Source: Aplysia californica
Taxonomy: Eukaryota
Assembly (NCBI RefSeq): GCF_000002075.1
Contig: NW_004798738.1
Location: 1-64,000, forward strand
Direction: 5' to 3'
DNA: 64,000 nt
Shown: one piece after another, positions 7,332 through 39,634 of the stretch
Numbering within the stretch: position 1 is the first letter of the stretch
Layout: each line of letters begins with the position of its first letter
Notes under the pieces: model-generated
What the model saw: the letters and a program-made list of their open reading frames with translations, nothing else
Databases searched by the model: none
What the model was told of the DNA's origin: nothing
Made by a program: the position numbers and the translations under genes

Positions 7332-7610
7332 TTAGTTTGACGTGCTAGTCAGATGCTGCAAAATGATATCGAGCTTCCCGTTGGCCGTCAAAGTGACTTG
7401 CTCTAAACGGTCAAGCCGACCGTTGACTTCGGTGAAGCTCTGATTAACATGGCTCTCCATGATTTCAAAGGCTTCAGATATCCAGCCTTCCGGTAAAACA
7501 ATATTATTGAAAGAATTTAGCGCAACCTTGAGTTCAGATATGGTTAATTCCAGTTGCGCTAGACGCCGGTGAAACGCTAAAGGGCTTGTGGGTTCTTCAG
7601 AGTAAGTCAT
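7332..7610 (-). CDS. Small coiled-coil protein
   Basis: 92 aa; KLDIILQHL C-terminus. Confidence 0.5.
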   Translation of the reverse strand: MTYSEEPTSPLAFHRRLAQLELTISELKVALNSFNNIVLPEGWISEAFEIMESHVNQSFTEVNGRLDRLEQVTLTANGKLDIILQHLTSTSN

Positions 7611-7734
7611 GTTTTACAGTGGTGTTTACCCTCCTATTATATTAAATCTAATTTAATTATACAAATATATTTGCTTAACCAAACAACAGCAGTAATACTG
7701 GGTTAGAATTGGCAAAACAATCAATCCAGGTAAA

Positions 7735-7983
7735 GTGAAAACAAAAACAAAAACAGTATCACTAAATTTTGGCGAATGGTTTCATGTACAGCGCAAGCGG
7801 GCGGGCATCAGCCAGACCGCGATCGCCCAGGCTTTGGGGGTAACGCAGCAATCCGTTGGCAACTGGGAAAACAATCGTTCTCTGCCTCATCTCAGCCCAG
7901 TAGGGATGGCCTGTTTGTGTGAGCTGCTAAAGGTTGACCTCTCAGAACTTGCGGCAATGGCTAGGGATTGGCAGATTAAGTGA
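7735..7983 (+). CDS. XRE/Cro-family HTH transcriptional regulator
   Basis: RKRAGISQTAIAQALGVTQQSVGNWENNRSLP. Confidence 0.85.
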   Translation: MKTKTKTVSLNFGEWFHVQRKRAGISQTAIAQALGVTQQSVGNWENNRSLPHLSPVGMACLCELLKVDLSELAAMARDWQIK

Positions 7984-7997
7984 TAGGATTGATCGAG

Positions 7998-8172
7998 TAG
8001 CCAAACACAGCGTTCTGGCATTAGTACTTCAATATTTTCAAACTAAGATTTTGGAAGCGTCAAGTTTCCACTTCGGCGGTCCACAGTCGGAGTCAGCCCA
8101 AAACCCACAAGGGACACGGGAAGGTGATGCGGTAATGCCCACCATGCGAGGGGAAAGCGATAGCGACTCCTC
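7998..8172 (+). ncRNA. Putative tracrRNA/scaffold RNA, copy B (upstream of the CRISPR array)
   Basis: Shares identical blocks of 27, 14, 12 and 13 nt with 17345-17519(-); the stems between them show compensatory changes. Confidence 0.75.
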
Positions 8173-8783
8173 AACAACACGCAGGCCAATGCAAGCACCA
8201 TTGCTTGCGCTCACTGAAAGGCAGTTCACGTCCTCGATTCGCACCTTGTCAATTTGATAGCAAGTTTTATCTATCTGAAGTGATTTATTGTTCAGGTAAT
8301 GCTTGCGTTTTGTCCGCAAGACTCTTGAGGAGGCAAGGTTCTAAGAAACGCCGTGATTTGAGGCTTATAGGCTGAAGTGTTGATGAACAATTTAGAATTA
8401 TTTACGAATGGGAATTGAAAGATGGTGTGATTTGAGGCTTATAGGCTGAAGTGTTGATGAACATTTTGTTTTAAAACACAGACGATATCCAGATGCAAGT
8501 GATTTGAGGCTTATAGGCTGAAGTGTTGATGAACATTGATGTTATGGAAGAGAAGGTAGATTCTATTCGACTTAAAAAGCCTGGTGAGTGATTTGAGGCT
8601 TATAAGCTGAAGTGTCGATGGACAGGAAGGATATGATTATAAAAATGGGCTTAATTACGTGATTTGAGACTTATAGGCTGAAGTATTGATGGACTAGATA
8701 TTCAAGAGTGGCAAGATAACCTCCCATCATGTGATCTGAAGCTTATAGGCTGAAGTGTTAATGGACTTTCGATAGGTGCAACT

Positions 8784-9242
8784 TTGACATCCTCTCCCTG
8801 CAACCCTAACGGGTATGCACAGAGATTCCTTGGATCGCTCCAAAGATTTCCTGCTGATCTCAGGTCGCCTCTTAACTAGACATCAAATGCAAACGACACC
8901 CTAAAATGTCTCTTCTCCATCCCCGTCAGCTCGACTTCACAGGCATTTTTGAACTGGGTTGCTCATCCCAGTCATGTCCTGCCCGGACGCTATACGTGTG
9001 TTTCGCAACTATTCCCTTAAAGTTTTACATCAACAGGGATTGGTGTTGAAAACCCCATACTTTAACTATTGAGTTGGTTAGGTTCAGATCAAGGCCCACA
9101 TTACTGGCTACCAAGATGTTTATATTTTATCGCAAAGGAGAATAAAACACTGCATTATTGTTCCCTGCGGTCACGCTCCGCTACACCCCCAGCCAAGCTT
9201 TCAGCTATGGGCTGAAGTATTGGGAAGTTTTTCCGATAGCGA
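8784..9242 (-). mobile_element. Non-autonomous IS200/IS605-like insertion in spacer 6
   Basis: TTGACATCCTC...GATTCC reverse right end and a subterminal hairpin near 9185-9225. Removal leaves a ~42-nt spacer. Left boundary inferred. Confidence 0.65.
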
Positions 9243-9864
9243 GTCAATACTTCCGTGAAGGCTTAAAGTGATTTGAAGCTTACCGGCTGAAGTGTCACTG
9301 GACTAGTTGGTTACCCGATAACTCACATACTCCAGTCGGATGTGATTTGAAGCCTATAAGGTGAAGTGTTGATGGACAAGCCAATCACTAAATTGAGATG
9401 CATCAAGCTTGATATGATTTGAAGCTTATAGGCTGAAGGGTTGATGGACTATTAAGCTATGTTTTTGTACAGGCAAGATGATTATGACTTGAGGCTTATA
9501 GGCTAAAGTGTTGATGAACTTACTCCGTGGCGGCGATTTTTAATTCGAATGCAAAGGTAATTTGAGACTTACAGTTTGAAGTATTAATGGACTAGCGGAT
9601 TTCCGCGAAACGCCTTTTTAACAACTGTCTTTTGAGACTGATTAGCTAAAGTGTGGATGGACTGAGATGCAGCTATATTTATCGTGGGCTAAGGGTTGTG
9701 TTTTAAAGCTTACAGGCTGAAGTGTTGACGGACTTTAGGGAAGCTTCCTGTTTGATTGTGGCTCTGCTATAATCTGAGGCTTACAAGCTGAAGTGTTGAT
9801 GGACTCTTGATTACTCAGTCCGCTAAACAAGAGGACGCTAGTGATTTGAGGCTTATAAGCTGAA

Positions 9865-10266
9865 CAAATCGGCGGCAGTCCCCAGCCCTCTGCAGGGTGG
9901 GGAAGGATAGCCCGTGACCGCAGGGAACAATTCTGCGGTAGAATAAAAGCGAGAGTGACACAAACAAACACCTCGTAATCGTTGGACGACAACCCTCAGA
10001 TCCTTGCGGTCTGTTGCTCTTGTCTAACCCAAAACTGACGGATAATAACGATACTGTCCGGCGCATGACGTCGTTAGCCTTCCTTCCAAAGCGCATTCTG
10101 CTTAATATTTGGGGCCAGGAACTGGCCTCGTTAGACGTGGAGTCGCCAACCTCTACTAGCTGATGTTGCTTGCAACAAGCCAGCAAAGCAAGTTGGGGCG
10201 TGGAAGCGTCGAAAGCCTTAAGCTGAGCAGGACGAAACTTCGTCCTCTTAGGGCGAGGTAGTTCAT
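9865..10266 (+). mobile_element. Non-autonomous IS200/IS605-like insertion splitting repeat 15
   Basis: Repeat halves GTGATTTGAGGCTTATAAGCTGAA and GGGTTGATGGAC flank a 402-bp insert with terminal hairpins ending GGTAGTTCAT; no target duplication. Confidence 0.75.
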
Positions 10267-10414
10267 GGGTTGATGGACGAATAGCTCGTGTGATTTAAAG
10301 CTTGCAGCTTAAAGTGTTGATGGACAATTGTGCTTCAGCTTGAGAAAGATGTTGTTGGACGCTCGAACTTCAATCAAATAAAATATTATTCACATCCTGT
10401 TTGAGTTGACGGGA

Positions 10415-10455
10415 CGAAGGGGCGAATCTGTGGTGGCTCGCCCCTTCGCTCTTTT
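10415..10455 (+). terminator. Intrinsic terminator between the array and the convergent VWA gene
   Basis: CGAAGGGGCGA...TCGCCCCTTCG 11-bp stem followed by CTCTTTT. Confidence 0.65.
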
Positions 10456-10460
10456 GTGCT

Positions 10461-11990
10461 TCAAACAGCAATAAATAATTCAGGCAGCTGATCAAACTGA
10501 CCTGATTCCATAGCCTTGTGGCTGATCGGCCAACACAGGCTTGCTAATGAATCAAGGCTTGATTCGCTTTCATCTCCCAGTGTGATCAGAAATAGATTAA
10601 CTTGGGCGTCAATCAAGAACTGCTCATACTTGCTTTTGAACTTACTACCTACAACACATACGCCATCAGTGATAAAAACAATATCAGCTTTACTATAGGG
10701 CTTGGGGCTAGAGCGAATCAGCTTTCTTGCTTTATTCAGTGGGGCCATAAAGCAAGTGCCATCCCCCCTAGATTCACTGACTAATTGCTGGATCCATTGT
10801 TGATACATGCTAGCTGAGAGTTTTTGGGGATCCAGGGTAATCGGTTGATGAGCCTCTTCGTCAAAAGGAATAATAGCAACTATTCTATTTTCGTCAAAGC
10901 ATAGGCAGGTCAAAGCGACAGTCAACGCCTTGGCCCACTCTTCTTCAATCCCATCACCCATCCTCATGGAGGCTGAAATATCCAAGCAGATAACTAGAGG
11001 TCCTTTACCAATAGGATCCGTGGATTCCAGCTCGTATTCTAAAAGCTGACCTTCCATCAAAGAACGATAGAAGTTGAGCTTGCGAACGGGGTGGCTTAAC
11101 TGAGCTAACTCTTGGGGTAAGACCTGCTGAAGATCATTACCTAAGGTTATCCCCACTAGCTGACCATGGCCTTCTAGAGGCTGCTGCCTGCGCTTCTGCC
11201 AAGCCACTTCTAGAGCGTGACCCGCCATCTTGAGGATTTGACGTAGCTGAGGTTCACTCTGAAGCAAGTTAGCAATCTCTAGCTGTTGGCCAATGGGGAC
11301 AGGGGCAAAATCTTGAGAACCCTTACCACAGCCCAGTAAATTCATAGCTGCTGTTGTTTGCTCTATGGACTGCTCCGCTGCTGCTACCCCTAGTTCAATC
11401 ACTTCCGTGATTTTCCCCGACTGGTCAGCGATCGCCTCTTGTAATTTAGCGGCAGCCTTAACTTGTTCCTTGCCTTGCTTTGAGATTTGATCAAAGGTCT
11501 GTTTGTCGTTTTGCAGTGCGGCCTCATGAGCCGCCTCTCGCAATGGCTGTAGGTCTTCAATTGGGTGGGCTTCAGATTCTGGATCCTTCTTTTTAAGCTG
11601 CTCTAGGGTTGTACCCAATTGCACAACTAATGTTTCCGTGGCCAGGGCTGCGCCTAGGTAGTCTCCATTGCAGCGGTTGACTAGCTTGTGAAAGCTAGGT
11701 TCTCCAGTCAGCTTTTGATGCAGCTCTACTGCCCAACCATGTTCTGGTTTTGGCTCTAGCCACTCGGGTTCAGGGTCGTAATAAAGGCGATGATAGACCT
11801 CTTGGGCAAAATTCTGGATTGTCCGCACAGTGCAATCTCTGAGCCTAATATCCATATAGTGATTATGGCGAATATAGTCTTGCCAGAAAACCCGAGAGAT
11901 TGCACTTGTCCTTAAGGTGATATCGTTAGTTTTTTCAGGCAGGGTAGTAATTGCAGTCGTATCAATTGCGGTTAAATCAACAGGCATCAA
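10461..11990 (-). CDS. VWA (MIDAS) domain protein, ViaA-like
   Basis: GPLVICLDISASM (DxSxS), GDGTCF, ADIVFITDG. Confidence 0.85.
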   Translation of the reverse strand: MMPVDLTAIDTTAITTLPEKTNDITLRTSAISRVFWQDYIRHNHYMDIRLRDCTVRTIQNFAQEVYHRLYYDPEPEWLEPKPEHGWAVELHQKLTGEPSFHKLVNRCNGDYLGAALATETLVVQLGTTLEQLKKKDPESEAHPIEDLQPLREAAHEAALQNDKQTFDQISKQGKEQVKAAAKLQEAIADQSGKITEVIELGVAAAEQSIEQTTAAMNLLGCGKGSQDFAPVPIGQQLEIANLLQSEPQLRQILKMAGHALEVAWQKRRQQPLEGHGQLVGITLGNDLQQVLPQELAQLSHPVRKLNFYRSLMEGQLLEYELESTDPIGKGPLVICLDISASMRMGDGIEEEWAKALTVALTCLCFDENRIVAIIPFDEEAHQPITLDPQKLSASMYQQWIQQLVSESRGDGTCFMAPLNKARKLIRSSPKPYSKADIVFITDGVCVVGSKFKSKYEQFLIDAQVNLFLITLGDESESSLDSLASLCWPISHKAMESGQFDQLPELFIAV

Positions 11991-13231
11991 TACAATTCCT
12001 CCACTAGGTCTTCTAGCTGGTCAATATAGCCAGTCACCTTTTCACTAAATTCAGCTTGCAACTGGGCTCCATTCTGCTCACACTCAATGGAGAACTTATT
12101 GGCCTTGTCGATCAAATTCTGCAAGTGAGTACGAACATTATCTGCAGCTTGCAGGCAGACGTCAGCAGGAATATTTTGATTCTCGCATTTCTGCTTAAAC
12201 TCAGTAAACTCATTGATTGCAGCTAGATGCAGGTTATCAAGTTGAGTCTTGCATAGGGGGGCAGTATCTACCAGAATCTTTTTAATTTCCTCGATTTCCT
12301 CAGGCTGCTTCCGCCAGCAGCATTGGGGCAATAGCTCATGAAGATGTTCGGTATAGACACAAGTACAGTCTTTAACGTAGGCAAAAGCTTTGAGTAGATG
12401 AATGATTTTAAGTCGACGTCGGGTACTGACTCGGATCCCATTCGCCTCTATTCGCATAAAGCTGGCAGTCAATAGCGCAAGCAGCGCTGGATGAACCGTA
12501 ACTTCAGCAGCCGCTATGGACATCTGCTCTAGCTGGGCTAGGGTAATAAATTCTTGATCCACGGGTGGTCGGGTATTGTCGACGGCCCACTTAAGCGAGG
12601 TTTTAATCGACTTAATTTTAGTCAAGTCACTGACATAAGGCCGATAGATAAAACGATCCGTAAAGGCTTCCAGGTCTTCACTGGTATTGATTTCATTAGT
12701 CGCCCCCACTAACGACTTGAGGCAGCTATGGGTTTTATCAGGATTGTCATAGGTACGCTCTTCCATTAACTCCAGGAGGCTATTATTAAGCACGCCATTG
12801 CCCCGAAATACTTCATCGAGAAACGCGATATGGGCATCCTGGATACGTCCAGTGACATTTCGTCTAAGCACGTCTTGCTCTAGGCTCTTCAGGCTAATCG
12901 GCCCTAGCACTTCATCTGGAGCCATGGCTTTATTTAGTAGCCGATGGAAAAACTTCATGTCCGTAAACGCTTCGCAAATCTCACGAATTAACAGGCTTTT
13001 AGCTACCCCTGGGGGGCCATATAGCAAGGCATTCTGTTGGACTAGTAACGTAGCGAGTAAGCCATCAATGATTTTGTCTCGCTCTAGATGGGACTGATTG
13101 AGTTGCTGCCGTAAGTGCTGCAATAAGGCATGGGGAGATTTAGCTGTTTTAGTTTTAGTAGCAGCTTTAGTAGTAGCTTTAGATCTACCGGCTTTAGATG
13201 ATTGAGTTGAACGGGTTTGAGTAGTTGGCAT
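11987..13231 (-). CDS. MoxR-family AAA+ ATPase, RavA-like
   Basis: Walker A GPPGVAKS; Walker B AFLDEVF; LNNSLLELMEER; GATNE; AFTDRF. Confidence 0.88.
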   Translation of the reverse strand: MPTTQTRSTQSSKAGRSKATTKAATKTKTAKSPHALLQHLRQQLNQSHLERDKIIDGLLATLLVQQNALLYGPPGVAKSLLIREICEAFTDMKFFHRLLNKAMAPDEVLGPISLKSLEQDVLRRNVTGRIQDAHIAFLDEVFRGNGVLNNSLLELMEERTYDNPDKTHSCLKSLVGATNEINTSEDLEAFTDRFIYRPYVSDLTKIKSIKTSLKWAVDNTRPPVDQEFITLAQLEQMSIAAAEVTVHPALLALLTASFMRIEANGIRVSTRRRLKIIHLLKAFAYVKDCTCVYTEHLHELLPQCCWRKQPEEIEEIKKILVDTAPLCKTQLDNLHLAAINEFTEFKQKCENQNIPADVCLQAADNVRTHLQNLIDKANKFSIECEQNGAQLQAEFSEKVTGYIDQLEDLVEELY

Positions 13232-13296
13232 AGGTAGAGTTTAAGTAGATAAAAGTGCAAATAAATTAGAGGGAGATTAGGAGAACTCAGGTGAAA

Positions 13297-14718
13297 TTAA
13301 AAACCAGCGATCGGGTCCGCGCCACCCATCGCTTTCACTTCGTCAAGGTGTTTCTCTAAAGCAGTATTTGCTTTTTTAGTGAGCTGTTTAATGTTGTTCA
13401 TTCGTCGCCTTAGGGTTGATTCTATGTTGGCCACTCGCCCTGCCTCAATACGTTGCAATGCTGCGGCATTGGGCGAGGCAATTAGCTGCTCCAGCTCTTG
13501 GGTTAACTTCTTGTAATCAGAGGCAAAGTTTAGAGACTGACTCAGCTTGGCAGCCCCTTCACCCGCTTTGTTTTCACCGACGCTATCCTTGACGGCTTGG
13601 TCAATCACAATGATGAAATTCTCATACATTTGCTGCATTCGGATCGGATCTGGATTCGAGTCAATAAAGCTAAGGAGTTCTTGGGACTCAGTGAGCAGGG
13701 GCTTGAGCTTGGGATTGTACTCCTGTAAGACTTCCAGTCGCTGGAATATCTTGTCGATACTATTGCGATCCTGTTGGGTAATCTTGGGTCCAAGGCTAAA
13801 TCGATCCACGAGGCTGGCGATTAGCTCCCAGCCCTGATCCAAAGACACCTCCACTGACTGATTAACCGCATGCACTAAGCCATTGAGCATCAATTTGTTT
13901 GTGGCAATCTTGGTCTCTAAAGCCTTGGCCTCTTCTTCTTCTTCTAAGGTGAGTCGCTGCTTTTGGGCCAGCTGGTGCTGTAGCTCTGCATCTTCAAGCA
14001 GCTTATCCTTAAGGGAGGTAATCTGCATGGGACCATCCACAATAATTTGCAGTGAATTCGCAAAGTCTTCAATACTGGGATACTCATAAGCGTAAAAGGC
14101 CAAAGCCTTGCGCACCTCCCTGCGATTGCCCGCCATTGTCTGCATAAATTTCTCCTCCAATTCCAGCAAGAACGTGGCGAGGTCTTCCTCATAACTGTCC
14201 ACTAGCTGCTGCCGATAACCAGCGGCCTCTGCCTTGACTGCCTCTGCCGCTTCAATAGCCGCTTGGATCTGGCTGCCTTCAACGAACCGGAACGGTTTGA
14301 CATAGATCGTATAACGATTGAAGAAGTTAGACTGAGCGTTAGAAAGCTTGTTCCGAAAGTTACTGAGGTTGTAAGAGAAGGGCTTGCGATAACCGCCCCT
14401 CAAGGCTTCCACCGCCTCTTCTGTCATCCCTAAGTCCTCTGCCTCAATGCAAATCGACATGGAGATAGTGCTGTGAACCTCCAAGGAAAGCCGATATAAG
14501 TCCTTGTCCGCAAGATGCTCCCAGATATCATGGACCGTTAAATCACTGCTGAAAGGGATTTTGTCCTGGGCCGCTCGGATAGAAGTATTATCGTGAATTT
14601 TACTAGCGACTAAGGAGTCAACCGTACTGTGGGTACTGGTTTTGAAGGGATCAATAAAGACAGGTTGATTGGGAGTTTGATTTTGAACTTGATTTTGAAC
14701 TTGAGTCATAGATTTCAC
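13297..14718 (-). CDS. Helical/coiled-coil protein leading the AAA-VWA operon (possibly DUF3150-like)
   Basis: 473 aa; family inferred from operon context only. Confidence 0.5.
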   Translation of the reverse strand: MKSMTQVQNQVQNQTPNQPVFIDPFKTSTHSTVDSLVASKIHDNTSIRAAQDKIPFSSDLTVHDIWEHLADKDLYRLSLEVHSTISMSICIEAEDLGMTEEAVEALRGGYRKPFSYNLSNFRNKLSNAQSNFFNRYTIYVKPFRFVEGSQIQAAIEAAEAVKAEAAGYRQQLVDSYEEDLATFLLELEEKFMQTMAGNRREVRKALAFYAYEYPSIEDFANSLQIIVDGPMQITSLKDKLLEDAELQHQLAQKQRLTLEEEEEAKALETKIATNKLMLNGLVHAVNQSVEVSLDQGWELIASLVDRFSLGPKITQQDRNSIDKIFQRLEVLQEYNPKLKPLLTESQELLSFIDSNPDPIRMQQMYENFIIVIDQAVKDSVGENKAGEGAAKLSQSLNFASDYKKLTQELEQLIASPNAAALQRIEAGRVANIESTLRRRMNNIKQLTKKANTALEKHLDEVKAMGGADPIAGF

Positions 14719-14927
14719 ACCTACTTACAATAACAATACAACATTAAATCTATAGGGATTTAATAATAAACAGAAGGCGCTAGTAGGCTAAAGCCTTTAA
14801 TGTAAAGTACTTTCTAAAGACTGGCCTCTCCCAGGCATGTTTTCCGCTACGATAGAATAACAGGCTTGAATAACAGGCTCACAAGCCAAGACATCATCAA
14901 GACATCAATAGCTGTAAAGGAGACGCC

Positions 14928-15605
14928 ATGAAAAAGTTCAAGCTACTAAAGCCTTTCCAGACAATGAGTCTAGAGGAGCTGGAGGGCTACGTAGACAAGC
15001 GCTATAACGACCGCATTACAGAGATGGTTTACCAAGGGTATGCGTACAAGATGATTCGGGATCGTCGCTTGTACGAGGATTTGTTTGATGACTTCGCCAC
15101 ATACATTAGGGAGCGTATTGGCTTACTACCTCAACAAGCCCACCGAAAGATTCGGGCTGCAAATGTCCTTTTGATCCTGAATGAGCATTATTCCTATCTG
15201 CCTGAGTCTCAGAACCTCTGCCGTCACCTGATGCGCCTCTCGCCTAAACACATCGTTACCGTGTGGGGCGTCACCCTTGAGCACTGGCACGACCCAGACA
15301 GCCCTTGCAATAAGTTCCCCCCCAAGAATGGCCGTAGACATAAAAACTCCCCAACGCCCCAAATGATCAAAGATGCGATGGCGGAACTGAACGTCACAGT
15401 TATGAACCCTGTACGTAGGGAGGTAGAGGATTTTGAGGAGTACCTCGAAGAAGAAAAGGCATGGAAGAAGAAAGTAGAACAGGCAGAAGAACGTTCTGAG
15501 AAAGAGCTTTTGCAGGAGGCTTTAAGAAAAGAGGCAGTAAAAGAAAGAGCGAGGCAGAGGGCAATGCTCAAACGAGAACAAGCACAAAAATCCCCGGTGG
15601 TTTAA
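14928..15605 (+). CDS. Hypothetical DNA-binding protein
   Basis: GGAG RBS; IRDRRLY...F..Y...AHRKIRAA...LPES pattern typical of mobile-element proteins. Confidence 0.55.
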   Translation: MKKFKLLKPFQTMSLEELEGYVDKRYNDRITEMVYQGYAYKMIRDRRLYEDLFDDFATYIRERIGLLPQQAHRKIRAANVLLILNEHYSYLPESQNLCRHLMRLSPKHIVTVWGVTLEHWHDPDSPCNKFPPKNGRRHKNSPTPQMIKDAMAELNVTVMNPVRREVEDFEEYLEEEKAWKKKVEQAEERSEKELLQEALRKEAVKERARQRAMLKREQAQKSPVV

Positions 15606-15622
15606 GCCACCGGGGCAAAAAT
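15587..15622. terminator. Hairpin terminator
   Basis: CCCCGGTGG-TTTAAG-CCACCGGGG with an A-tract on the left, i.e. a U-tract for minus-strand transcripts. Confidence 0.55.
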
Positions 15623-15922
15623 TGCTCATCCGATCTTCTATGCATTTCCTACTCTTGATTCATTGTTCCCGAGTAGGAAAGGTATTTTCCTGGAATAATA
15701 TCTTTCCGTTAATTCTTTAAATCCAACAAGAGTTCAAGCACTTTAGCCGAAGCGCAGCGAAGGCAAAAACCGAAAGCAGTAACTCTTTTCGGCCAGGATG
15801 CCATCTCCAATTTCCAGCAGTTTATGCTAGCCGCCCAGCGTTTGCCTGTCCATTTTTCCCTGGGATTGCAGTCGCAATAGGTTAGGTACGTCCCAACTTG
15901 AAGGTATTCACCAATCTTTCCA

Positions 15923-16291
15923 TTGACTACTCCCCTGGCTGAAGCCTAGGGGATTCCCCTGCTTCGCTTAGGGATTTCGAGCACTTCTTGCTGAAACTTC
16001 TGTCACTTTCCAACAGGACGCTTAGGGACCGTCAATCGTCCCTCTAGACTGTCCGACCTTGCAGTCATCCAGCTTACTTTTGTTGTCTCGTTGCTGAAAT
16101 TGAATCTCTCGCTGATGGAACAACTTTGCTACCGACAGGTATGTTTGTCCTCACGGGATGTTAAGCCCCAACCAATCAGGTCTTTGAGTCTTGCAACTAC
16201 CTTAATTTTACCACGGCAGATAAATCTGCCCGAGTCGCTTTTCCACCCCGGACTGAAGTCACGGGGCTACCAAGCTACCGAGTGTTCTCCC
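15923..16291 (-). mobile_element. Non-autonomous IS200/IS605-family element
   Basis: Reverse right end TTGACTACTCCCCTGG...GGGGATTCC. Left end shares ACGGCAGATAAATCTGCCCGAG (16213-16234) and terminal CTCCC with the tnpB IS. Confidence 0.72.
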
Positions 16292-16962
16292 GTGTATTTC
16301 CCCCAGCCTTAAGACAACCATTCATCTCTTTCCAACTAAGTTTCTAACGTAATTGCTTGGAGATCTCCAACTATTTTCTTGCAAACTCAAGAGCATCGGT
16401 TCATTCACATGTCCAGGCAAACAGTACCTTGTAGTTTTCGAACAAATATTTTAATGCGGTTATTGTCCAGTTCTTTCAATTCATATTTCAACTCGTCCAA
16501 ATGCTCTAATAACTTATCCACTCTTTCCTGCTTGCTGTACCACTGTCAACTTATCCAGCTTGGGCAAGAAATCTAATTTCATCAAGATATTTTCCAGGGT
16601 ATTTTCTCAGACTTTCCAACATGTACCAATACCTTCATGCCCAATAATCAAAAGTATTCGCCTGCATATATCCAAGTGTCCGGCACCACGAACTTCCAGT
16701 TCAAGAATTTGTCACCTAGTAGTCTTCCTTCTTGTCTTGCTGCCTATCCTACTGCTTGCCCTTGACTTTCTTCCTGTCCTGCTTCAAGTTAATCCAGCTA
16801 GAACTGCCGCTTTTTGTTGTTGTCTATGGCTCGGCCCCATGTCCAAATACTGCCTGTCTTTACCCTGAATTTTTCCTACTTACAAAAAATCAATCTGCAT
16901 GTGTCCGCTTATCGGAAAAACTTTGTAGCGTCCCAAGGAGCATGGAAATAAGATATCTTGCC

Positions 16963-16998
16963 GTCCATTAACAATTCAGCCCGCAAAACTCAAACATC
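16963..16998 (-). repeat. Lone degenerate copy of the CRISPR repeat downstream of the Cas12-like gene
   Basis: GTCCATTAACAATTCAGCCCGCAAAACTCAAACATC matches the reverse complement of the consensus at 26/36 positions. Confidence 0.65.
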
Positions 16999-17344
16999 TC
17001 CCGCTTCTTCATCTCCCGCCTCTTTCAGATCACATACAACATCCAGCCGTCCATCAATAGAACATCCAGCCGTCCATACCTTGATTTTGTGCTGGCATGC
17101 ATGTATCCACTTAAAGTTTCTGCTTGTCCTGCTGTTACCCTAGACATTCTCCCTGTCCTGCTTTACGCTAATCCATCCTAGGGGTGTGCAAAAGCCTTTG
17201 CTTAAAAAATATCCAAGCTTGCCATGCCCAAGTTTTCTCACGTCAATTGACTCATCAATTGTTCAGCAAGGTATTTGCCATGTCCAGGGGTGCGCGAAAG
17301 CCTTTGCCTAGCTCTTTAATTGCCAAGGTACGTGGAACATAAGC

Positions 17345-17519
17345 CAGGGAATCGTTATTACTTTTCCCCTGCATGATAGACATTACTGGCTATCTTCCCG
17401 TGTCCCCGAAGGGTTTTGGGCTAATACGCCTGACTGTGGACCGCCAGACGGAGACATAGTCTCAAAGGTTTTATCTGAAAAATATTGGAACGCTAATGCC
17501 AGAACGCTGTGTTTGGCTA
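17345..17519 (-). ncRNA. Putative tracrRNA/scaffold RNA, copy A (20 nt after the effector stop codon)
   Basis: Homologous to 7998-8172; contains a CCC-UUCG-GGG hairpin and covarying stems. Confidence 0.75.
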
Positions 17520-17539
17520 ACTGAATGGTATCACAATTT

Positions 17540-19441
17540 TTAAATCTTTAAATCAATCTTTCGTTCCTTCACTGGCTTACGTTTACGACGCTGAAACTTC
17601 TTAGGAGTGTGGGCTGGATTAACTAGCCCATCTAACTGCACTGGCTTAATCTCAGGTGACTGCTCTATGGGGGGAACATCAAAGCTAGAAGCTTCTAGTA
17701 TCTCCCGAGGGGTAGCCTCGGGCTTAACAGACACTGTTTCAACCACCCGATCCGCCCCTCGATCCACAGCCTTCTGCTTAATCAACGAGACGAATTGGCC
17801 TAGGGCAATAGTTCGAATCTGTTCATTCAGTAACCGCTGCTCCTCTCGACCGTTTGGAGAATAACCCTCTCCATCTTTTTTGGGGATAGGCAGGGGACGA
17901 CCTAAAGCAGCCTTGGGATCGAATGTTTTAATCGCGATATATTGATTCGCATCTACAAACCAGGAGCTGTAATAGTGATGGTAGTTCCGTTTGCAGCGAG
18001 ACTGACGCCGTTCAATGGCGACAATTTTAGTATTGATGCGCTTCCAGTTTTCAGAGCCAAGCTTCATATTAGACTGGACTCTTCTAAGGGCATTAATTCG
18101 CTCTTTGAAATGATCCAGTTGAGGATGTTTGATGCGAATTCCATTGGTAGTATCGGCCAAATAGTTAAACCCTAGATCGATGCCAATGGGTGTTGGTCGA
18201 GGATTGCCAGGACTAACCAGTACCCGCAAGGTGAGCTGGAGGAAAAACTTTTGGCCTCGACGAAGGATGTGAAACGAACCAGGCAGGCAGAGTTCAGGGA
18301 TGATCAGATCTATAGCTCGCTTCTCAGCTAAAGCCTGCAGCTTAGATATAGCCACCTGCTTGCTCTTGTGCTGAGAGCACCAGGCATCTACCTTTTTCAC
18401 AACCTGCTTTAAGAATCCCTTGGGGTCTTCAGGCATCTGCTGATCCGTTTGCAGCCAGCGGATTACGTTCAAAAGAGTTTGGCGCTCCTCTAGCTTCTCA
18501 TTCAGCTCTGGGTAGTCCTCTGGATGGGTGCGCATATGCTGCTCTTGTCGGGCCATCAGTTTACCCAGGCGATCGCTGAGCTTAGGGATATATTGCCAGC
18601 TCAGTCCAGGCAACTTGACTTGATCGTTCTCTAGGTCTAATTTGCACTGACCTCGAAAGGACTGGCTAGGGATGGTATTCACATGATCGCCGCGACTCTT
18701 GTAGCGCGGTCGACGAATCTCCTTACGCTTTGGGTCTAAATAATTCTCCCAGGACTTAGCCAAAACAATAGCAATATAGTCATTGATGTAGACCAGGGGA
18801 ATCGTCGCGTCCTCTAACAACTCCCAGCGCTTCTTCGCAAAAGGCTTGCGCAGATCAGTCACACCATAGGAATCAATCAAGGGATCCGTAAGCCAGTGAG
18901 ATTTGACTAGACAGCAGGCGGGGCGCAATTCAATATTGTCGACATCCCAAGACTTGCGTCGGTCAATCCGCTGCTCAATAGCCAGATCACAATACATCGC
19001 CCACTCGCCATCTGAGGCTTTAGTCACCTGTAGTGCGACTGGTGTATTGTATGTGAGTTCGTGGTGAGGAACCTGGGAATCAAAGAACCCCCATCGGTCT
19101 AGGACATCAGGGTCTGCAGGGGTACCAATCGCCCAATGCTTGGGTGCGGGCACCCGCTTATTAGATTTAGCCTCTGGTTCAGCTGGCTCCTCCGGCACAG
19201 AAGGCCGAGAGAATAAGACCTGAGGCAGCTCTAACTTAGGTGGTGGATTCAAGAACCCCCAGGCAGATAAGATGTCTGGATTTACGGGGGCCTCTTGGAT
19301 TTTCTGTAAGCGATTGGAATACTGACGCCATTCCAGTAGCGCTAAGCCTCTGTTATAGACTTGCTTGAGTATCTCCATCCAGCTGATAACCTCAGCCTTC
19401 TCTCTTGGAGAAAGCAGTAGTGGGAATTCAATTGTCTTCAT
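17540..19441 (-). CDS. TnpB-derived type V (Cas12-like, possibly C2c8/V-U2-related) effector, predicted nuclease-dead
   Basis: TnpB-like N-terminus (MKTIEF...VYNRGL); RRPRYK; RuvC-I IGIDLG; GSENWKR; RuvC-II IAIK instead of IAIE; GYSPNG...LN..I...ALGQF...IKQKA; no CxxC finger or DRD-NAA; two large insertions. Confidence 0.75.
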   Translation of the reverse strand: MKTIEFPLLLSPREKAEVISWMEILKQVYNRGLALLEWRQYSNRLQKIQEAPVNPDILSAWGFLNPPPKLELPQVLFSRPSVPEEPAEPEAKSNKRVPAPKHWAIGTPADPDVLDRWGFFDSQVPHHELTYNTPVALQVTKASDGEWAMYCDLAIEQRIDRRKSWDVDNIELRPACCLVKSHWLTDPLIDSYGVTDLRKPFAKKRWELLEDATIPLVYINDYIAIVLAKSWENYLDPKRKEIRRPRYKSRGDHVNTIPSQSFRGQCKLDLENDQVKLPGLSWQYIPKLSDRLGKLMARQEQHMRTHPEDYPELNEKLEERQTLLNVIRWLQTDQQMPEDPKGFLKQVVKKVDAWCSQHKSKQVAISKLQALAEKRAIDLIIPELCLPGSFHILRRGQKFFLQLTLRVLVSPGNPRPTPIGIDLGFNYLADTTNGIRIKHPQLDHFKERINALRRVQSNMKLGSENWKRINTKIVAIERRQSRCKRNYHHYYSSWFVDANQYIAIKTFDPKAALGRPLPIPKKDGEGYSPNGREEQRLLNEQIRTIALGQFVSLIKQKAVDRGADRVVETVSVKPEATPREILEASSFDVPPIEQSPEIKPVQLDGLVNPAHTPKKFQRRKRKPVKERKIDLKI

Positions 19442-19533
19442 GCGCCCCCAGTGTTTGAATAAATACTTTGAACATAAGGTGATATTACGGCACTATTGCG
19501 TTAGCTATCAAAAAAAATAAAGGAGCAAAAATT

Positions 19534-19785
19534 TTGACGAATAAAGCCTATTTCTTTGCGGACAAACGCACAGGCCAGGTGCGTCGCACTCCTATATACG
19601 CCAGCACTGCTAGTGCTGCTAAGCAAAAGCTGCATCGTCCCCCCGCCGACCAGGCCAGGGTGGCTAAAGTTCGCGCGGTCAAAGCTGCAGAACATCGAGC
19701 TGCGAAGGGAGGACGATGGGTTAGCTCTCGCGTAGCAACAGACTTCAATCAGTCTAGGGGGTTTGGTCCCAAGCCAGGAAGTTGA
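19534..19785 (+). CDS. Small basic hypothetical protein divergent from the effector
   Basis: AAGGAG RBS before TTG; 83 aa. Confidence 0.45.
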   Translation: MTNKAYFFADKRTGQVRRTPIYASTASAAKQKLHRPPADQARVAKVRAVKAAEHRAAKGGRWVSSRVATDFNQSRGFGPKPGS

Positions 19786-19824
19786 ATCCTGCTCCCAGTC
19801 AAAGTTTCAATGGCCTTGGTCGCC

Positions 19825-21090
19825 TTGATCCACTCCCCCGACTAAAGTACGGGGGATTCGGGACTCAAGCAGCGATTGCCGTCAGAGACGGTCTAACATC
19901 GCCTACTCCCAGAGACAGAGATCCTGCCTCTTTAATGTTGTTCGCTGCGTTACCATCACGGTCATTGACCGTCTGACAACTAGGACAGCGCCAACGCCGC
20001 ACATCTAAGGGCAACGACTCCAGTACATGCTTGCAATGGTTACAAGTCTTGCTCGACGGATACCACTGGTCTACATAACCCACAGTCTTGCCCTTTTTGC
20101 AGGCAACAAACGCTAAAATTTGCAGGAATTCACGGAAGGCTAGATCGCTGACTTTACGACCCCATAGCCGCTGCATTCCCTTTAAGTTAAGCGTCTCAAA
20201 AAATAAGTGGTCATACTGGTCTGTAAGCTGATGAGCCAGCTTCCAAAACCAGTCTGTTCGCCTGTTCTTGATGGCTTCATAAGCCCGAGCTAAATGCTTT
20301 CTAGCTCGTTCACGCCCCTTAGAACCCTTCTGCTTTTTAGAAAGGTGGCGATGGGCTAGCGCGATCTGATTAATTCCTTGCTTTAGAAACAAAGGACTCT
20401 TGATCTCAGAACCACCCGATATCGTCAGGAAAGTCTTTAATCCAAAATCAAACCCTGCGCTTTTACCTGTCATGGGTTGTTGATGTTCGTCTACGTGATC
20501 TGTGACGACGAAGATAAATATCTCGCCTAGTGGATTACGTTTGACGGTGATGGTTTTGACGTTTCCTTGGATCTCGCGACTGTTCCAGTATCGATAGATC
20601 TGCTGGCCAATCTTGATCCGACCTTTGCCAAGCAACTTATAGCTTGACTGCTTGAGGGTGAAGGATTTGTATTTGATTCGCTTCTTAAACCCAGGTGGCT
20701 TAGTGCCTCGACTATGGTACTTGAAGAACAACTGGTAGGCTCGCTCTATGCGCTGGCAGATATCCTGCATCGATTGAGAACCTACCAATTGCCAGTACGC
20801 TGAGGTCTTGCGCTTCTTGGCAATGTGCTTTTGCAGGTTGGAACAGCTTAAGTGCTGGCCATAGAGCCGATAATATCGCTTGTGCAAAGCAATACAGTGA
20901 TTCCATATGCTAGAGGCAGCATTAATCGACTGATGAAGCTTCTTACAGCGCTTATGGTTATATAGCTTGAACTTAAACGTTTTCACTTTTATACTTTATC
21001 GCGAATTAAAAGACGGCAGATAAATCTGCCCGAGTCCTTTTCATCCCTGCTCTAAAGAGACAGGGCTTTCAAGTTCCCGTATGCTCTCCC
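19825..21090 (-). mobile_element. IS1341-type (IS200/IS605 family) element, tnpB only
   Basis: Right-end hairpin ends TCAA at 19825; left-end hairpins 21013-21070; preceded by TTTAC; interrupts ORF 21052-21336. Confidence 0.8.
19865..20986 (-). CDS. tnpB: RNA-guided endonuclease TnpB (intact D-E-D and Zn finger)
   Basis: GFDFGLK, FFETLN, CNHC...CPSC, DRDGNAANNI. Confidence 0.93.
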   Translation of the reverse strand: MKTFKFKLYNHKRCKKLHQSINAASSIWNHCIALHKRYYRLYGQHLSCSNLQKHIAKKRKTSAYWQLVGSQSMQDICQRIERAYQLFFKYHSRGTKPPGFKKRIKYKSFTLKQSSYKLLGKGRIKIGQQIYRYWNSREIQGNVKTITVKRNPLGEIFIFVVTDHVDEHQQPMTGKSAGFDFGLKTFLTISGGSEIKSPLFLKQGINQIALAHRHLSKKQKGSKGRERARKHLARAYEAIKNRRTDWFWKLAHQLTDQYDHLFFETLNLKGMQRLWGRKVSDLAFREFLQILAFVACKKGKTVGYVDQWYPSSKTCNHCKHVLESLPLDVRRWRCPSCQTVNDRDGNAANNIKEAGSLSLGVGDVRPSLTAIAA

Positions 21091-21335
21091 GTAAACCTTG
21101 CCTTCCTTGATAAGCTGCGAATGAAAATGACAAACTTCGATATCGAGATGGGTCACCTTTTGCAGATAATAACTAAGCGGACAAGCCAAGGCTTGCCGAG
21201 CATGACCAACAATTTCGTTCCGGTCCTTGGTCTCTAACCACGCCAGAAATTTTTGCTTGTCTAGGTGTTCAAGCACAAGCTCTTGAGTTTGAAATAGTTG
21301 AAAATTTTCCATAGGAATTCCTCTAATTAGGTACA

Positions 21336-26332: not shown

Positions 26333-27319
26333 TTAAACTGCAGCCCCAGCCTTGAGCAACTTATCAATCAGCTGAGCCTTGAATGGTGTACGAGGCAACG
26401 TATCAATCTGTTTTTCCAGTAGCTCTAAGCCCGAGACAGGTAGCTGTCCAGGTACTTGCCCAGAGCTTAGGAGGTTTTCAGCAATGGGCTGGTCATGGTA
26501 CTGATGGATTAACCTTAGGTTTTTAGGGTCAGCTCGTCCTTCCCCTAGGCTGCCAATGGGAAAAGCTAGGAACTCTTCCGCTAGATCCCGATTAGGCTTA
26601 GCAGAAATGCTATACGCAAACCCCTCCCTAGGTCCAAGGCCATAGTAGCCTTTCATATGGCCCTGGTCTTGGGTTATACGTGCATACAACGGATCAACTC
26701 GCAACTCTTGATTAGCGGTAGGATTACCATAGAACTGGCTAGGGGTTTGACGAGAGCTCGTATTAAACCCACGGACGCCGCCTCGGGTCATGTACAGCTG
26801 CCATTTATCCTCAGGGTTATCAGCAATCCGTTTGCTTAGAGCATCATGGACATCTCCCAGGTGCTGAATCTGTACTGAGTCTTGCATCTTGTGGGCGACA
26901 TCAGGCCAGTCCCAGTCTGCCATCGGAGTTTTAGCGAAAGAAACATACTCAATCGGTCGCTTACCCCGTGCTGATTCAATCTTGTAAACAACTTCTGGAT
27001 CTGGATAGCTCAGGTACTGACCCGTCTGTTTGTAATTTTGGTTATAGGTATCCATTAATTGCTGAGCGTCCTCAGCCGTTAGCTTTGAGTTACGCAAATA
27101 GAAATCAATTCGATCTCCTTGGCCAAATTTTGGATCGATAGTGCCGCGATCGCGGTGTTCCATTTGCGAGCTAGATGCGTAGGGTACCGACTCATCCGTA
27201 ATGGTCACCTGTTTTACCTGGGCTTTTGGTAGCCCCTTAGGAATCTGTTGCTGCTTTTTCTGCAGGGGAACTGGCTTGGGTCGAGCAAATCGTTTAAGCA
27301 TGATTAAAGTTCGGTACAT
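26333..27319 (-). CDS. Hypothetical protein, possibly virion-associated
   Basis: 328 aa; N-terminal KQQQIPKGLP resembles KQIPPGLP of 42445-44796. Confidence 0.55.
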   Translation of the reverse strand: MYRTLIMLKRFARPKPVPLQKKQQQIPKGLPKAQVKQVTITDESVPYASSSQMEHRDRGTIDPKFGQGDRIDFYLRNSKLTAEDAQQLMDTYNQNYKQTGQYLSYPDPEVVYKIESARGKRPIEYVSFAKTPMADWDWPDVAHKMQDSVQIQHLGDVHDALSKRIADNPEDKWQLYMTRGGVRGFNTSSRQTPSQFYGNPTANQELRVDPLYARITQDQGHMKGYYGLGPREGFAYSISAKPNRDLAEEFLAFPIGSLGEGRADPKNLRLIHQYHDQPIAENLLSSGQVPGQLPVSGLELLEKQIDTLPRTPFKAQLIDKLLKAGAAV

Positions 27320-30300
27320 TGAGATTTGGCAGAAGAATCAAAACACTAGGGTTTAACTTGCCAACCCTTCTTGCGAGCCAGGGCTTGAGCCCGACGCTTC
27401 ATTGCTGAGGAAGTCTGCTGAGCCTTCATACTCTTTTGAGCCTTGCGCTCATTGATGCGAGCCTGGGCTGCTGCCGCCTGCTTCTTCATCGCTTCCACCT
27501 TTTCTGGGGTAATGTCAGCCCGAGCCTTGCTCACCTTGTCGCGATAATCTTGAATTGACTTATCCCTTTGCTGGCCTAGGGTCTGTTGACGCTGCTGGTA
27601 TCGCTGCTCCCCTCGCTGATTAACGTCAGCAACAACATCCTCTGATAGACCTGGACGGTTGGAAATCACCCCCTCATTAGAAGGCATGCCCATGTTGGCA
27701 GCCTCTTCAATCGTTTTGTTATAGGCATCTTGAGCATGACGGCCTTCAAGGATGACCGCATCTAGCCCGTCCGAGAGCGCGTAGTACGCCTGCTTGCTCG
27801 CTGGAGTTGACCCTTTGAACTCTGGCTCCTGGTCCCACCTGGGCTCGGGCACGGAGGACCAGTCCTGAGAGCGATCCACGGAGCCTGCNNNNNNNNNNNN
27901 NNNNNNNNNNNNNNNNNNNNNNNNNNNNNNNNNNNNNNNNNNNNNNNNNNNNNNNNNNNNNNNNNNNNNNNNNNNNNNNNNNNNNNNNNNNNNNNNNNNN
28001 NNNNNNNNNNNNNNNNNNNNNNNNNNNNNNNNNNNNNNNNNNNNNNNNNNNNNNNNNNNNNNNNNNNNNNNNNNNNNNNNNNNNNNNNNNNNNNNNNNNN
28101 NNNNNNNNNNNNNNNNNNNNNNNNNNNNNNNNNNNNNNNNNNNNNNNNNNNNNNNNNNNNNNNNNNNNNNNNNNNNNNNNNNNNNNNNNNNNNNNNNNNN
28201 NNNNNNNNNNNNNNNNNNNNNNNNNNNNNNNNNNNNNNNNNNNNNNNNNNNNNNNNNNNNNNNNNNNNNNNNNNNNNNNNNNNNNNNNNNNNNNNNNNNN
28301 NNNNNNNNNNNNNNNNNNNNNNNNNNNNNNNNNNNNNNNNNNNNNNNNNNNNNNNNNNNNNNNNNATTGAGATCAACGGAGCTATAGGTGCGCGGTGATA
28401 ATGCCTGCTCCAAGGCATCAGGGACTGCACTCGCTCCCCTTAGGTTTGCTTGGGGGGTGGAGACCTGAGACTGGTAGATGTGAGACTCCGGCCCCAAGGG
28501 CACCGTCTCCATCTGGCCCGTGCGCTGGAGGAACTCAGGGGAAGACATCTCTTCCATCAACCGATATTGCTGATTCTCCTGGGGACTCATTAGCCGACGA
28601 GCTGTGGTCTGGTTGATATCAATGTCTGAGCCAAACTCAATGGGCTGCTGAGGATATACGCGAGGTCCAGATTCCTGCACGGGACTCGTACCCAGACCTT
28701 CGCTGATTAACTGGCTAGCTAAGGTTGCACCCCCCTTGGCCTCGGGTAAAACAGATTGGTTCAATGGTTGGGCCGAACCTATTTGCCCCTCAGGGGGAAG
28801 GCCCAGTTCCGCTCTAGCATTGGGGCCGAGAGTACCCTTGAGCATCCCTGATTGATAAGGGATATTCCAGGGGTCCTTACTGGAGCCTTGAAACTGGGTA
28901 TGGGGCGTAGCTGTGGGCGTTCCCTTAGCCATCCCTTGCTGGGTCATTCGGTCTCCTAAGGCCATATCTAAATCCACGAGGGGATTAGACAAGGCCATGC
29001 CCTGGTCAATGTAATCCAGTCGTCGAGCCAGTTGACCTTGGGGGACAGAGGTAATATTCTGATTAGTTTGGGCTCCCCCTAATCCTTGGATTGCACGTAC
29101 GGCGACGTTATCTGTATCAGCAATCTCATGGGGGAATTTCTGCATTCGCCAGTCTGTAACCGCTCTAATCCTAGCTGCTCTTTTTGGATCATATGCAGCT
29201 ATCTCTGGAAGCTTTGCCTGCAGTTTCTTCACTTCGTCAAGGGGCATGTCATATGCCTTGACGAGGTTGCCTAATGCCGTTTGATCCTCACTCTTTAAGC
29301 TGTACATGGGATGGAGTTCACCGCCCTTGCGAGCCCCAAAGGTATTAGCTTGAGTAACATCATTAGAAGCCTGCAGGCTAGCCCGATTCGCTGCACTGCC
29401 AAAGATAGGGTTCTCTGGGTCGAGCTGCTGGGCAATCTCATAAATCTCCTCTGGCCTCAGGCTACCCGCTCGCTTGTCGTACCGATTATTGGACGGCATC
29501 TTTTGAGAGAGGTACCTGTCCCCCGTATTGGGATTGCTAATCTCCTCCCATAGCTGCCGCTCCGGGATGGCCACCGTGCGACCGCCCAGCTGGGCTGGAT
29601 AGTTGGTATAAGGCTCCTGAGTCTGAGGATCTATCGGATGATTGACGGGAGCAAAGCCCATTAGCTTATTCCTGTTCGTCAAGGGATAAGCATTGTAAGG
29701 CCCCACCATCTCATCAAAGCGAGTGGCAAAGTTGCTGGGCATAGGTGTGTAGCCCAAAGCCTGCAGCTCACTCGGCTGTAGCATCGATAGATCAACTCGC
29801 AACTCTTGATTAGCGGTAGGATTACCATAGAACTGGCTAGGGGTTTGACGAGAGCTCGTATTAAACCCACGGACGCCGCCTCGGGTCATGTACAGCTGCC
29901 ATTTATCCTCAGGGTTATCAGCAATCCGTTTGCTTAGAGCATCATGGACATCTCCCAGGTGCTGAATCTGTACTGAGTCTTGCATCTTGTGGGCGACATC
30001 AGGCCAGTCCCAGTCTGCCATCGGAGTTTTAGCGAAAGAAACATACTCAATCGGTCGCTTACCCCGTGCTGATTCAATCTTGTCAACAACTTCAGGATCT
30101 GGATAGCTCAGGTACTGACCCGTCTGTTTGTAATTTTGGTTATAGGTATCCATTAATTGCTGAGCGTCCTCAGCCGTTAGCTTTGAGTTACGCAAATAGA
30201 AATCAATTCGGTCTCCTAGGCCATATTTTGGATCGATAGTGCAGCTATCGCGGTGTTCCATTTGCGAGCTAGATGCGTAGGGTACCGACTCATCCGTAAT

Positions 30301-32778: not shown

Positions 32779-32826
32779 CAAAAAAAAATAATGGGGTAAG
32801 CAATTGCAGAAATTGCTTACCCCATA
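32779..32826 (-). terminator. Intrinsic terminator after ssb
   Basis: ATGGGGTAAGCAATT...AATTGCTTACCCCAT followed by a U-tract on the minus strand. Confidence 0.65.
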
Positions 32827-39531: not shown

Positions 39532-39621
39532 AATGTAATTAGTTAGTTAGTTAATAGATTAGTTAGTTAAAGCGCTAGCGCTTTAACTAACTAATCTATT
39601 AACTAACTAACTAATTACATT
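39532..39621. repeat. 90-bp perfect palindrome
   Basis: 45-nt arms with no spacer; centre AGCGCT|AGCGCT. Confidence 0.95.
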
Positions 39622-39634
39622 CCAAACAAAAGAA

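Follow-up and report, generated by a model that had tools for sequence, protein, structure and literature searches.

The first 64 kb of contig NW_004798738.1 of the Aplysia californica assembly, the 64,000-nt stretch referred to here as the window, contains a gene for a 633-amino-acid protein related to type V CRISPR effectors (positions 17540 to 19441, minus strand), a CRISPR array (8353 to 10325, plus strand), and an RNA element that resembles a trans-activating CRISPR RNA (tracrRNA; 8051 to 8210, plus strand). The contig is 84,324 bp long, in an assembly of 927 Mb and 4332 contigs, and family scans of the window proteins found a large terminase, a major head protein, a virion protein, and an integrase. 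Because of these phage genes, an Acaryochloris-like TnpB gene, and the origin of the nearest homologues of the effector, we infer that a temperate phage or prophage, whose host is Acaryochloris or one of its near relatives, was co-assembled as this contig and probably came into the assembly with an associated cyanobacterium. The region from 7600 to 21200 does not seem to be an assembly artifact, as contigs from a DNA run, which may itself be the source of the window, span all 30 of its 30 bins at a depth of about 5, with one differing place.

The effector gene was first noticed as an open frame of 633 codons with a broken RuvC nuclease domain, and both observations held. Its predicted product combines WED and REC domains, a domain similar to the thioredoxin-binding (TB) domain of Cas12p, a helical insertion similar to a PI domain, a truncated RuvC, and a basic tail. 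The RuvC-I aspartate is kept (IGIDLG, D422), and the RuvC-II glutamate is replaced by lysine (YIAIKTFD, K505); in an alignment of 123 sequences, these residues share columns with D180 and E264 of a TnpB encoded nearby. The Zn finger and RuvC-III are gone, as proposed, with no CxxC and no RuvC-III motif on the C-terminal side of RuvC-II. The linker and basic tail found there occur throughout the family, and a structured RNA overlaps this tail in close relatives.

The structure model has a mean predicted local confidence (pLDDT) of 85, with low values only at residues 70 to 81, 89 to 123, and the tail. Of the two large insertions that the sequence-only reading described, the one before RuvC-I (residues ~286 to 385) is a confidently modeled helical bundle that is common to the relatives and varies in length. 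The N-terminal one, claimed as roughly 150 amino acids, is present and falls into two parts. Residues 129 to 190 (~60 amino acids) form a domain conserved across the family, while residues ~52 to 128 (~75 amino acids) have no counterpart in the four closest relatives and are mostly disordered in the model (pLDDT of <50 at 70 to 81 and 89 to 123). The duplicated motif reported there (PDILSAWGF and PDVLDRWGF, residues ~55 to 64 and ~111 to 120) is real, with 22 of 36 nucleotides alike. Together, the duplicated D-x-x-x-x-W-x-x-(F/L) motif and the TB-like domain, recognized by profile alignment to Cas12p, occupy residues ~55 to 190 (18872 to 19279, minus strand).

The model shows the WED/REC/RuvC fold derived from TnpB. 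Structural comparison with VIA-align gave a Z score of 18.3 for ISDra2 TnpB (root mean square deviation, 3.4; 327 residues aligned) and of 16.9 for Cas12p, the protein with the most aligned residues (395; deviation, 6.0; identity, 18%). Cas12p was the top match of both the Foldseek search (E value, 1.2e-14) and the profile search (E value, 4.6e-39). In the family libraries, the protein matched NF038192 (V-U2/C2c8) with an E value of 2.3e-37, at 129.2 bits below the cutoff of 350, and PADLOC Cas12u2 with an E value of 2.3e-43. It reached 56.8 bits for guided_TnpB, for which the cutoff is 100, and has neither the catalytic triad nor the Zn finger expected of a mobile IS200/IS605 TnpB.

The likeness to Cas12p extends to individual residues. 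The Cas12p preprint (10.1101/2025.01.20.633832) places a TB domain within REC of this protein, with W102, F105, V113, L115, C127, I129, and I172, and, ahead of RuvC, a PI domain of two helices; the preprint numbering fits the aligned chain after an offset of 128 tag residues. In the family profile alignment, V113, L115, C127, I129, and I172 map to V135, L137, C151, L153, and L178 of the effector. A cysteine at position 151 is found in 23 of the 29 members of the clade described below and also in many active relatives. Matched by eye, DIFARWSSF at the start of the Cas12p TB domain (W102/F105) has a spacing similar to that of DVLDRWGFF (W117/F120) and DILSAWGFL in the effector. By these alignments, the first insertion is an inherited TB-like domain of ~60 amino acids with a disordered addition of ~75, and from its position and helical fold in the model, the second appears to be the counterpart of the Cas12p PI domain. 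The suggestion that the insertions recruit a partner has, therefore, gained a candidate by homology, thioredoxin, as the first insertion aligns with the Cas12p TB domain.

The loss of catalytic residues is not restricted to this copy. The nearest homologues are found in Acaryochloris and are 47 to 50% identical, and 25 representatives were retrieved at E values of ≤1e-30. We built a tree (FastTree) of 123 proteins, comprising 121 of 154 homologues (those of at least 380 amino acids; the 33 shorter ones were excluded) and two window proteins; its rows do not include the Cas12p sequence. The effector falls within a clade of 29 proteins (support, 0.996). D, E, and the Zn finger are kept in its sister branch and in the other branches around it, which are V-U2/Cas12p-like. 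Within the clade, the RuvC-I aspartate is present in 13 of 29 proteins and the RuvC-II glutamate in 5 of 29, with seven different residues in that column; no member has both, and none has a CxxC Zn finger or RuvC-III. A lone decaying allele is thereby excluded, as D-E-D is intact in no clade member. The ratio of nonsynonymous to synonymous substitution rates (dN/dS) is 0.075 in the core of two intact relatives (L003 versus L004); between the window gene and its relatives, synonymous sites are saturated (proportion of synonymous differences, 0.85 to 0.87; nonsynonymous, 0.32 to 0.33). Given the dead clade of 29, this dN/dS, and the intact window frame with saturated synonymous sites, the inactivation is, by the standard of these comparisons, old, shared, and maintained. 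Domestication, which the sequence-only reading preferred over decay, is thus supported by the clade and the dN/dS, although its argument from gained domains is not: active relatives with D-E and Zn finger already carry the conserved cysteine of the TB-like domain, so this domain was not gained at inactivation. We found no second family member in the assembly and none in viral contigs, and among 401 sampled cyanobacterial genomes, the Acaryochloris plasmid pREB1 alone gave a full-length match. The tree also contains a second, separate V-U2-like group without Zn finger and with an altered RuvC (P0045, P0062, P0040, P0052, P0071, P0112, P0056, P0141, P0063, and P0133), which implies at least two inactivations in this lineage.

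The array lies 7 kb from the effector gene and consists of 16 repeats of 36 nt, separated by 12 spacers of 34 to 38 nt, one of 53 nt, and two intervals with insertion sequence (IS) remnants (501 and 413 nt). Repeats are exact at the leader end and degrade distally; repeats 1 to 3 share one sequence, which gives the strongest duplex with the anti-repeat (−16.1 kcal/mol). The leader (8211 to 8352, plus strand) is 72% identical to the leader and first repeat of the L004 locus. Directly upstream, the tracrRNA-like RNA has five stems, the loop GGTCCACA, an anti-repeat at ~8172 to 8190, and a closing hairpin. The segment from 8041 to 8177 (plus strand) and the coding tail of the L004 relative share 92% identity, and in L004 that tail precedes a leader of similar sequence and two repeats that belong to the window family. 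Folding of this tail RNA gives the same set of stems in four of the five copies other than the one 3′ of the window gene, and a partly deviating set in G405; dS between L003 and L004 drops to 0.42, from 1.96, where the RNA overlaps the coding tail. Through its second loop, GGTCCACA, the RNA could base-pair with TGGAC at the end of the repeat, a kind of pairing that 10.1101/2025.01.20.633832 describes for Cas12 tracrRNAs in general. The anti-repeat that follows stem 5 pairs with its own repeat better than shuffled sequences do in all four loci tested (4, 11, 33, and 85 of 2000 shuffles) and covaries with it (GTGTTG/CAACAC in the window, GCTTTG/CAAAGT in L004, GATCTA/TAGATC in G404). An earlier test with a misplaced zone that covered the closing hairpin gave no signal (399 to 544 of 1000 shuffles equal), and Rfam gave no matches.

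A second scaffold copy (~17340 to 17519, minus strand) lies directly 3′ of the effector gene, whose own coding tail has lost the RNA-overlapping stretch. It is 73% identical to 7998 to 8170 over 176 nt; both copies have the same upstream stretch of ~45 nt, and the first two stems of this copy (17519 to 17348) are preserved through changes on both sides. Beyond it, 16300 to 17339 (minus strand) is probably a worn-out leader and array. A degenerate repeat at 16998 to 16963, 580 nt downstream of the effector, scores 23.3 bits against the repeat profile, compared with 8.4 for the next best match outside the array, and the repeat end TGGAC occurs eight times on the minus strand and never on the plus strand, with 0.94 expected. 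Nine Acaryochloris genomes gave no homologue of the 16.3- to 17.3-kb region beyond the scaffold. As read from the sequence, the phage holds two old modules, one with the effector and a worn-out array and the other with a tracrRNA and an array but no effector. Since no other copy of the effector was found in the assembly, its work in trans with the distant tracrRNA and array would be the simplest reading. The two scaffold copies (7998 to 8170, plus strand; 17348 to 17519, minus strand) are inverted repeats, and a flip of 9 kb would place the array right behind the effector; at 73% identity such an inversion is probably old, and no joint of that kind was found among the DNA-run contigs. Separately, plasmid pREB1 has a stand-alone scaffold without effector (L091; G001:C2:181820-181949, minus strand) 7 kb from its family gene; the 3′ part pairs with the window repeat at −20.5 kcal/mol, and such a repeat was not found nearby.

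Among eight relative loci, repeats lie directly 3′ of the gene in four (L004, L020, L089, and L090), three of them with the same repeat family as the window, and in the loci examined this repeat family occurs only beside the effector family. Genes are intact in L003, L004, L019, and L020, and the surroundings of L019 to L021 look phage-like by eye. On a Gloeobacter plasmid (L008:7257-9600), too, an array follows a V-U2-like gene, and the repeat of this array likewise begins with GTGAT.

For spacer targets, we searched the array up to 9880 against 48 genomes of the order. Spacer 4 (8624 to 8658, plus strand) matches 31 of 35 positions, with a perfect run of 25 nt (E value, 5.6e-6), on the sense strand within the coding sequence of a chromosomal accessory gene of Acaryochloris G405 with a DUF4417-like product of 384 amino acids. 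All four mismatches fall within the spacer's first 10 positions, which makes an orthologue of this gene the probable true target. The gene is divergent from a helix-turn-helix (HTH) gene and a capP-like peptidase gene (E value, 1.8e-15), a layout that marks defense operons. PADLOC found no defense-family match for the target gene itself, and the target was found neither in 301 sampled genomes (a search without a positive control) nor in phage records. Of its homologues, a plasmid-borne one is also divergent from an XRE regulator, and another lies beside parB and an HNH gene. The AT-rich island around it (L123:7502-10307; G405:C23), where the HTH and capP-like genes diverge from the Cys-rich DUF4417/TGT-like gene, is a candidate for an undescribed defense module, to be taken as a lead only. 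The first spacer of L004 matches 33 of 34 positions of the exbB/tolQ gene in its own assembly, upstream of exbD, on the sense strand and within the coding sequence, and also orthologues in 4 more of the 48 genomes. TonB-ExbB-ExbD powers the entry of some phages. The retained self-match is consistent with a noncutting effector, and it may be a selected repression or a tolerated accident. The remaining array matches in the 48 genomes were IS sequences. The spacers had no match in their own contig, their own assembly, or phage records; four spacer cores and the repeat pattern each gave zero hits in viral contigs, and the best E value of the distal spacers against nine genomes was 0.13. The best match of a G404 spacer (83%; E value, 4e-4; extending past the spacer) and a 23-nt match of L004 spacer 2 (E value, 0.028) were not accepted.

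From these data, we consider it reasonably probable that the protein is an RNA-guided, noncutting repressor within a nuclease-dead type V CRISPR system that is carried by the phage and derives from the V-U2/Cas12p lineage. Two of the three catalytic motifs and the Zn finger are lost, and the WED, REC, and RuvC scaffold is retained; complex formation, R-loop binding, and the block of transcription are predictions from these features. The effector, made 7 kb away, would load the tracrRNA and CRISPR RNA (crRNA) in trans, form an R-loop on matching DNA, and stay bound to it without a cut, which would block transcription of host genes and rival mobile elements in the way of Cas12m and TldR. Spacers against the host chromosome would be tolerated because the effector cannot cut, and new spacers would probably come from host Cas1-Cas2, since neither cas1 nor cas2 is among the window proteins scanned. 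The domain around C151 could dock host thioredoxin as in Cas12p, for which homology gives a roughly even prospect, and docking would couple DNA binding to the redox state of the host.

Several observations weigh against a dead repressor served by this array. By structural Z score, the model is nearer to ISDra2 TnpB than to Cas12p. Cas12p REC-layer residues W44, Y45, W47, and L51 align to R44, L45, K47, and A51, where the helix register may be shifted, and the W-x-x-F motif is found in only 9 of the 29 clade members and is missing in the four closest relatives. The array is on the strand opposite the distant effector gene, its repeats are drifting, and two IS remnants break it, while the scaffold copy that does lie beside the gene lacks the anti-repeat of the main array (duplex of −7.9 versus −16.1 kcal/mol). 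The anti-repeat zone was picked by eye after the sequences had been viewed, and the cognate assignment of anti-repeats to repeats ranked second of 24 permutations. Half of the eight relative loci have broken genes (L005, L021, L089, and L090), and half lack repeats (L003, L005, L019, and L021). Only 1 of the 13 simple window spacers was matched, with its mismatches at one end, and the 5′ flanks of the two targets share no protospacer-adjacent motif.

As a rival reading, the family would be a functional dead binder of which the window copy is orphaned, its effector and array coming from two old paralogous modules that have become uncoupled. The two scaffold copies are just 73% alike, the one at the array is nearer to the L004 tail (92%) than to the copy beside the window gene, the effector's own downstream array is nearly erased, and the main array carries IS remnants. 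However, the window frame is intact at saturated synonymous divergence from its relatives, the three leader-proximal repeats do not differ from one another and form the best duplex with the anti-repeat, the two scaffolds have their core stems and 45 nt of upstream sequence in common, and no other family member was found in the assembly, so we regard an orphaned copy as unlikely. It seems quite improbable, too, that the dead effector guides a partner enzyme in the manner of Cas12k (an integrase, a transposase, a sigma factor, or a MoxR/vWA module) rather than acting as a roadblock. In favor are its large REC and helical insertions, a MoxR AAA/vWA operon that lies between effector and array, and the integrase of the phage; against it, no neighbor common to the relative loci was seen (parA/parB in L004, IS debris in L003 and L089, phage-like genes in L019 to L021), and no Tn7-type family is among the window proteins scanned.

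A decoy that soaks up host guide RNAs or thioredoxin, with DNA targeting only secondary, would recall the phage dead Cas9 proposed to sequester crRNAs (PMC11656645), and such a sponge could well make use of a motif doubled within a disordered insertion. That motif is, however, private to the window copy, and the RNA has as its pairing partner the repeat family of the phage itself, seen only beside the effector family in the loci examined, which leaves a decoy very unlikely. Least probable of all is a nuclease or nickase that still works through a rearranged active site. TnpB clades with rearranged sites, one of them without a Zn finger, are described in PMC10691335, and D422 is kept here, as is the RuvC-I aspartate in 13 of the 29 clade members. 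Against this, the same residue is lost in the other 16, seven residues occupy the RuvC-II column, D and E occur together in none, and the 33/34 self-match persists in the L004 assembly.

The noncutting repressor could be taken one step further, to a natural, reprogrammable CRISPR interference (CRISPRi) of cyanobacterial phages and plasmids. Here, the dead Cas12p-like protein would acquire spacers from the host chromosome and silence genes such as those for ExbB-ExbD, which energizes outer-membrane receptors, and the candidate defense gene flanked by CapH/CapP. Binding would be gated by host thioredoxin and thus by the redox state that light drives in the cell, with the doubled motif as a second or regulatory docking site. 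We hold this tentatively and think it doubtful. If the repressor itself is real, it would represent a further independent origin of noncutting type V CRISPR after Cas12k and Cas12m, in a lineage whose active member is thioredoxin dependent. It also makes testable what minimal CRISPR loci of phages do when they have neither nuclease nor adaptation genes, and whether phages repress host genes with adaptive guides. The locus further shows a tracrRNA leaving a coding tail, overlapping in the relatives and free-standing and duplicated in the window, and a predicted natural DNA binder of 580 to 630 amino acids, whose tracrRNA and repeat are defined, could serve as a compact CRISPRi tool.

Upstream of the effector lies an intact TnpB element (19829 to 21060, minus strand). 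Its open reading frame (19865 to 20986; D180/E264/D344) lies 423 bp from the effector gene, in agreement with the intact TnpB reported ~420 bp upstream; its proposed use as an internal comparison did not stand, with a best blastp E value of 0.30 and a position outside the clade in the tree. As there is no significant alignment, it roots outside the family, its end sequence recurs at a remnant at 16213 to 16293, and a TnpB remnant on pREB1 matches it at 87% identity, the element is, judged by alignment, tree, and end sequence, an unrelated insertion outside the CRISPR system, and this TnpB was rejected as the parent of the effector. A basic 83-amino-acid frame between effector and TnpB element (19534 to 19785, plus strand) had no Pfam match. 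On the other side, an XRE-type HTH gene (7735 to 7983, plus strand; Pfam HTH_3, E value of 3e-9) lies 5′ of the tracrRNA-like RNA and is only a candidate for a link to the system. The operon between array and effector (10461 to 14718, minus strand) codes for a 473-amino-acid protein, a MoxR AAA ATPase, and a vWA protein, and none was seen beside relatives of the effector. Short IS200/IS605-type remnants occur at 15930 to 16293, 8780 to 9240, 9860 to 10270, and 4321 to 4361, two of them within the array. Elsewhere in the window, two adjoining genes (26333 to 27319 and 27346 to 30417, minus strand) have near-identical starts, and 26692 to 27883 is repeated at 29790 to 30981 (99.4%) beside runs of N, possibly an assembly duplication. 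Long perfect or near-perfect palindromes (90, 60, 106, and 35 nt) are found at 39532 to 39694 and 32436 to 32825. The scan for Tn7-type families (tnsB, tnsC, and tniQ) covered the window proteins, the last 20 kb of the contig lying outside it, and promoter and terminator scans stayed at chance level. Two poly(A) runs, which do not bear on whether the system is expressed, gave 2 and 0 reads.

Among known systems, the best family matches are to type V-U2/C2c8 (Cas12u2; gp061 of cyanophage vB_AphaS-CL131 and c2c8 of a Microcystis plasmid). Both V-U2 and the window system belong to cyanobacterial phages and plasmids, with the effector followed by an array and no cas1/cas2. The effector differs in its score of 129 bits, below 350, and in its lack of the Zn finger, RuvC-III, and the RuvC-II glutamate, and the repeat family of the Microcystis locus is not that of the window. 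A regulatory role has been proposed for V-U2 in a cyanophage (PMC6293099), and spacers are shared among cyanobacterial systems (10.1101/2021.02.06.429022); PMC13728456 and PMC12704722 are further literature for comparison. Cas12p, or "Cas12 hacker" (type V-P; PDB 9JFS and 9JG3), is likewise phage borne and of similar size, and its domains follow one another as they do here, from WED through REC with its TB domain, a helical PI insertion, and RuvC to a disordered tail. Its tracrRNA forms a pseudoknot with the repeat end, as is predicted for the tracrRNA-like RNA of the window, although the motif is AAAC:UUUG in Cas12p and TGGAC:GTCCA here (repeat end TGGAC/TGAAC, loop GGTCCACA). Cas12p keeps D378/E478/D582 and the Zn finger and cleaves DNA, whereas the effector keeps the first aspartate only.

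In the literature within reach, which leaves out most subscription papers, we found no account of a V-U2/Cas12p clade that is nuclease dead, and the Cas12p preprint (10.1101/2025.01.20.633832), searched by term, mentions neither cyanobacteria nor inactive forms. PMC10691335 lists the altered-site groups V-U24, V-U43, and V-U44, and the family could be one of these; one supplementary file of that paper does not mention Acaryochloris. Cas12m (type V-M; PMC11013384 and PMC11656645) is noncutting, is borne on mobile elements, and silences via DNA binding, as proposed here, but it uses no tracrRNA and keeps the Zn finger (PMC11013384), while the window system has an anti-repeat RNA and no Zn finger. 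As Cas12m is a distant structural match (Z score, 12.2), the two inactivations appear to be separate. Cas12k (type V-K CRISPR-associated transposons) is also a dead cyanobacterial type V effector with a tracrRNA and a PI domain; it is a weaker structural match (Z score, 12.0), and Tn7-type genes are missing among the window proteins scanned. TldR proteins are nuclease-dead, RNA-guided TnpB repressors, some of them prophage borne and aimed at host genes, which use one fixed omegaRNA-derived guide and no array. The window system has, instead, a tracrRNA-like RNA and an array of many spacers. By these sequence comparisons, the effector resembles Cas12m and TldR in its predicted action and is a member of neither, and it does not have the catalytic features of V-U2 and Cas12p.

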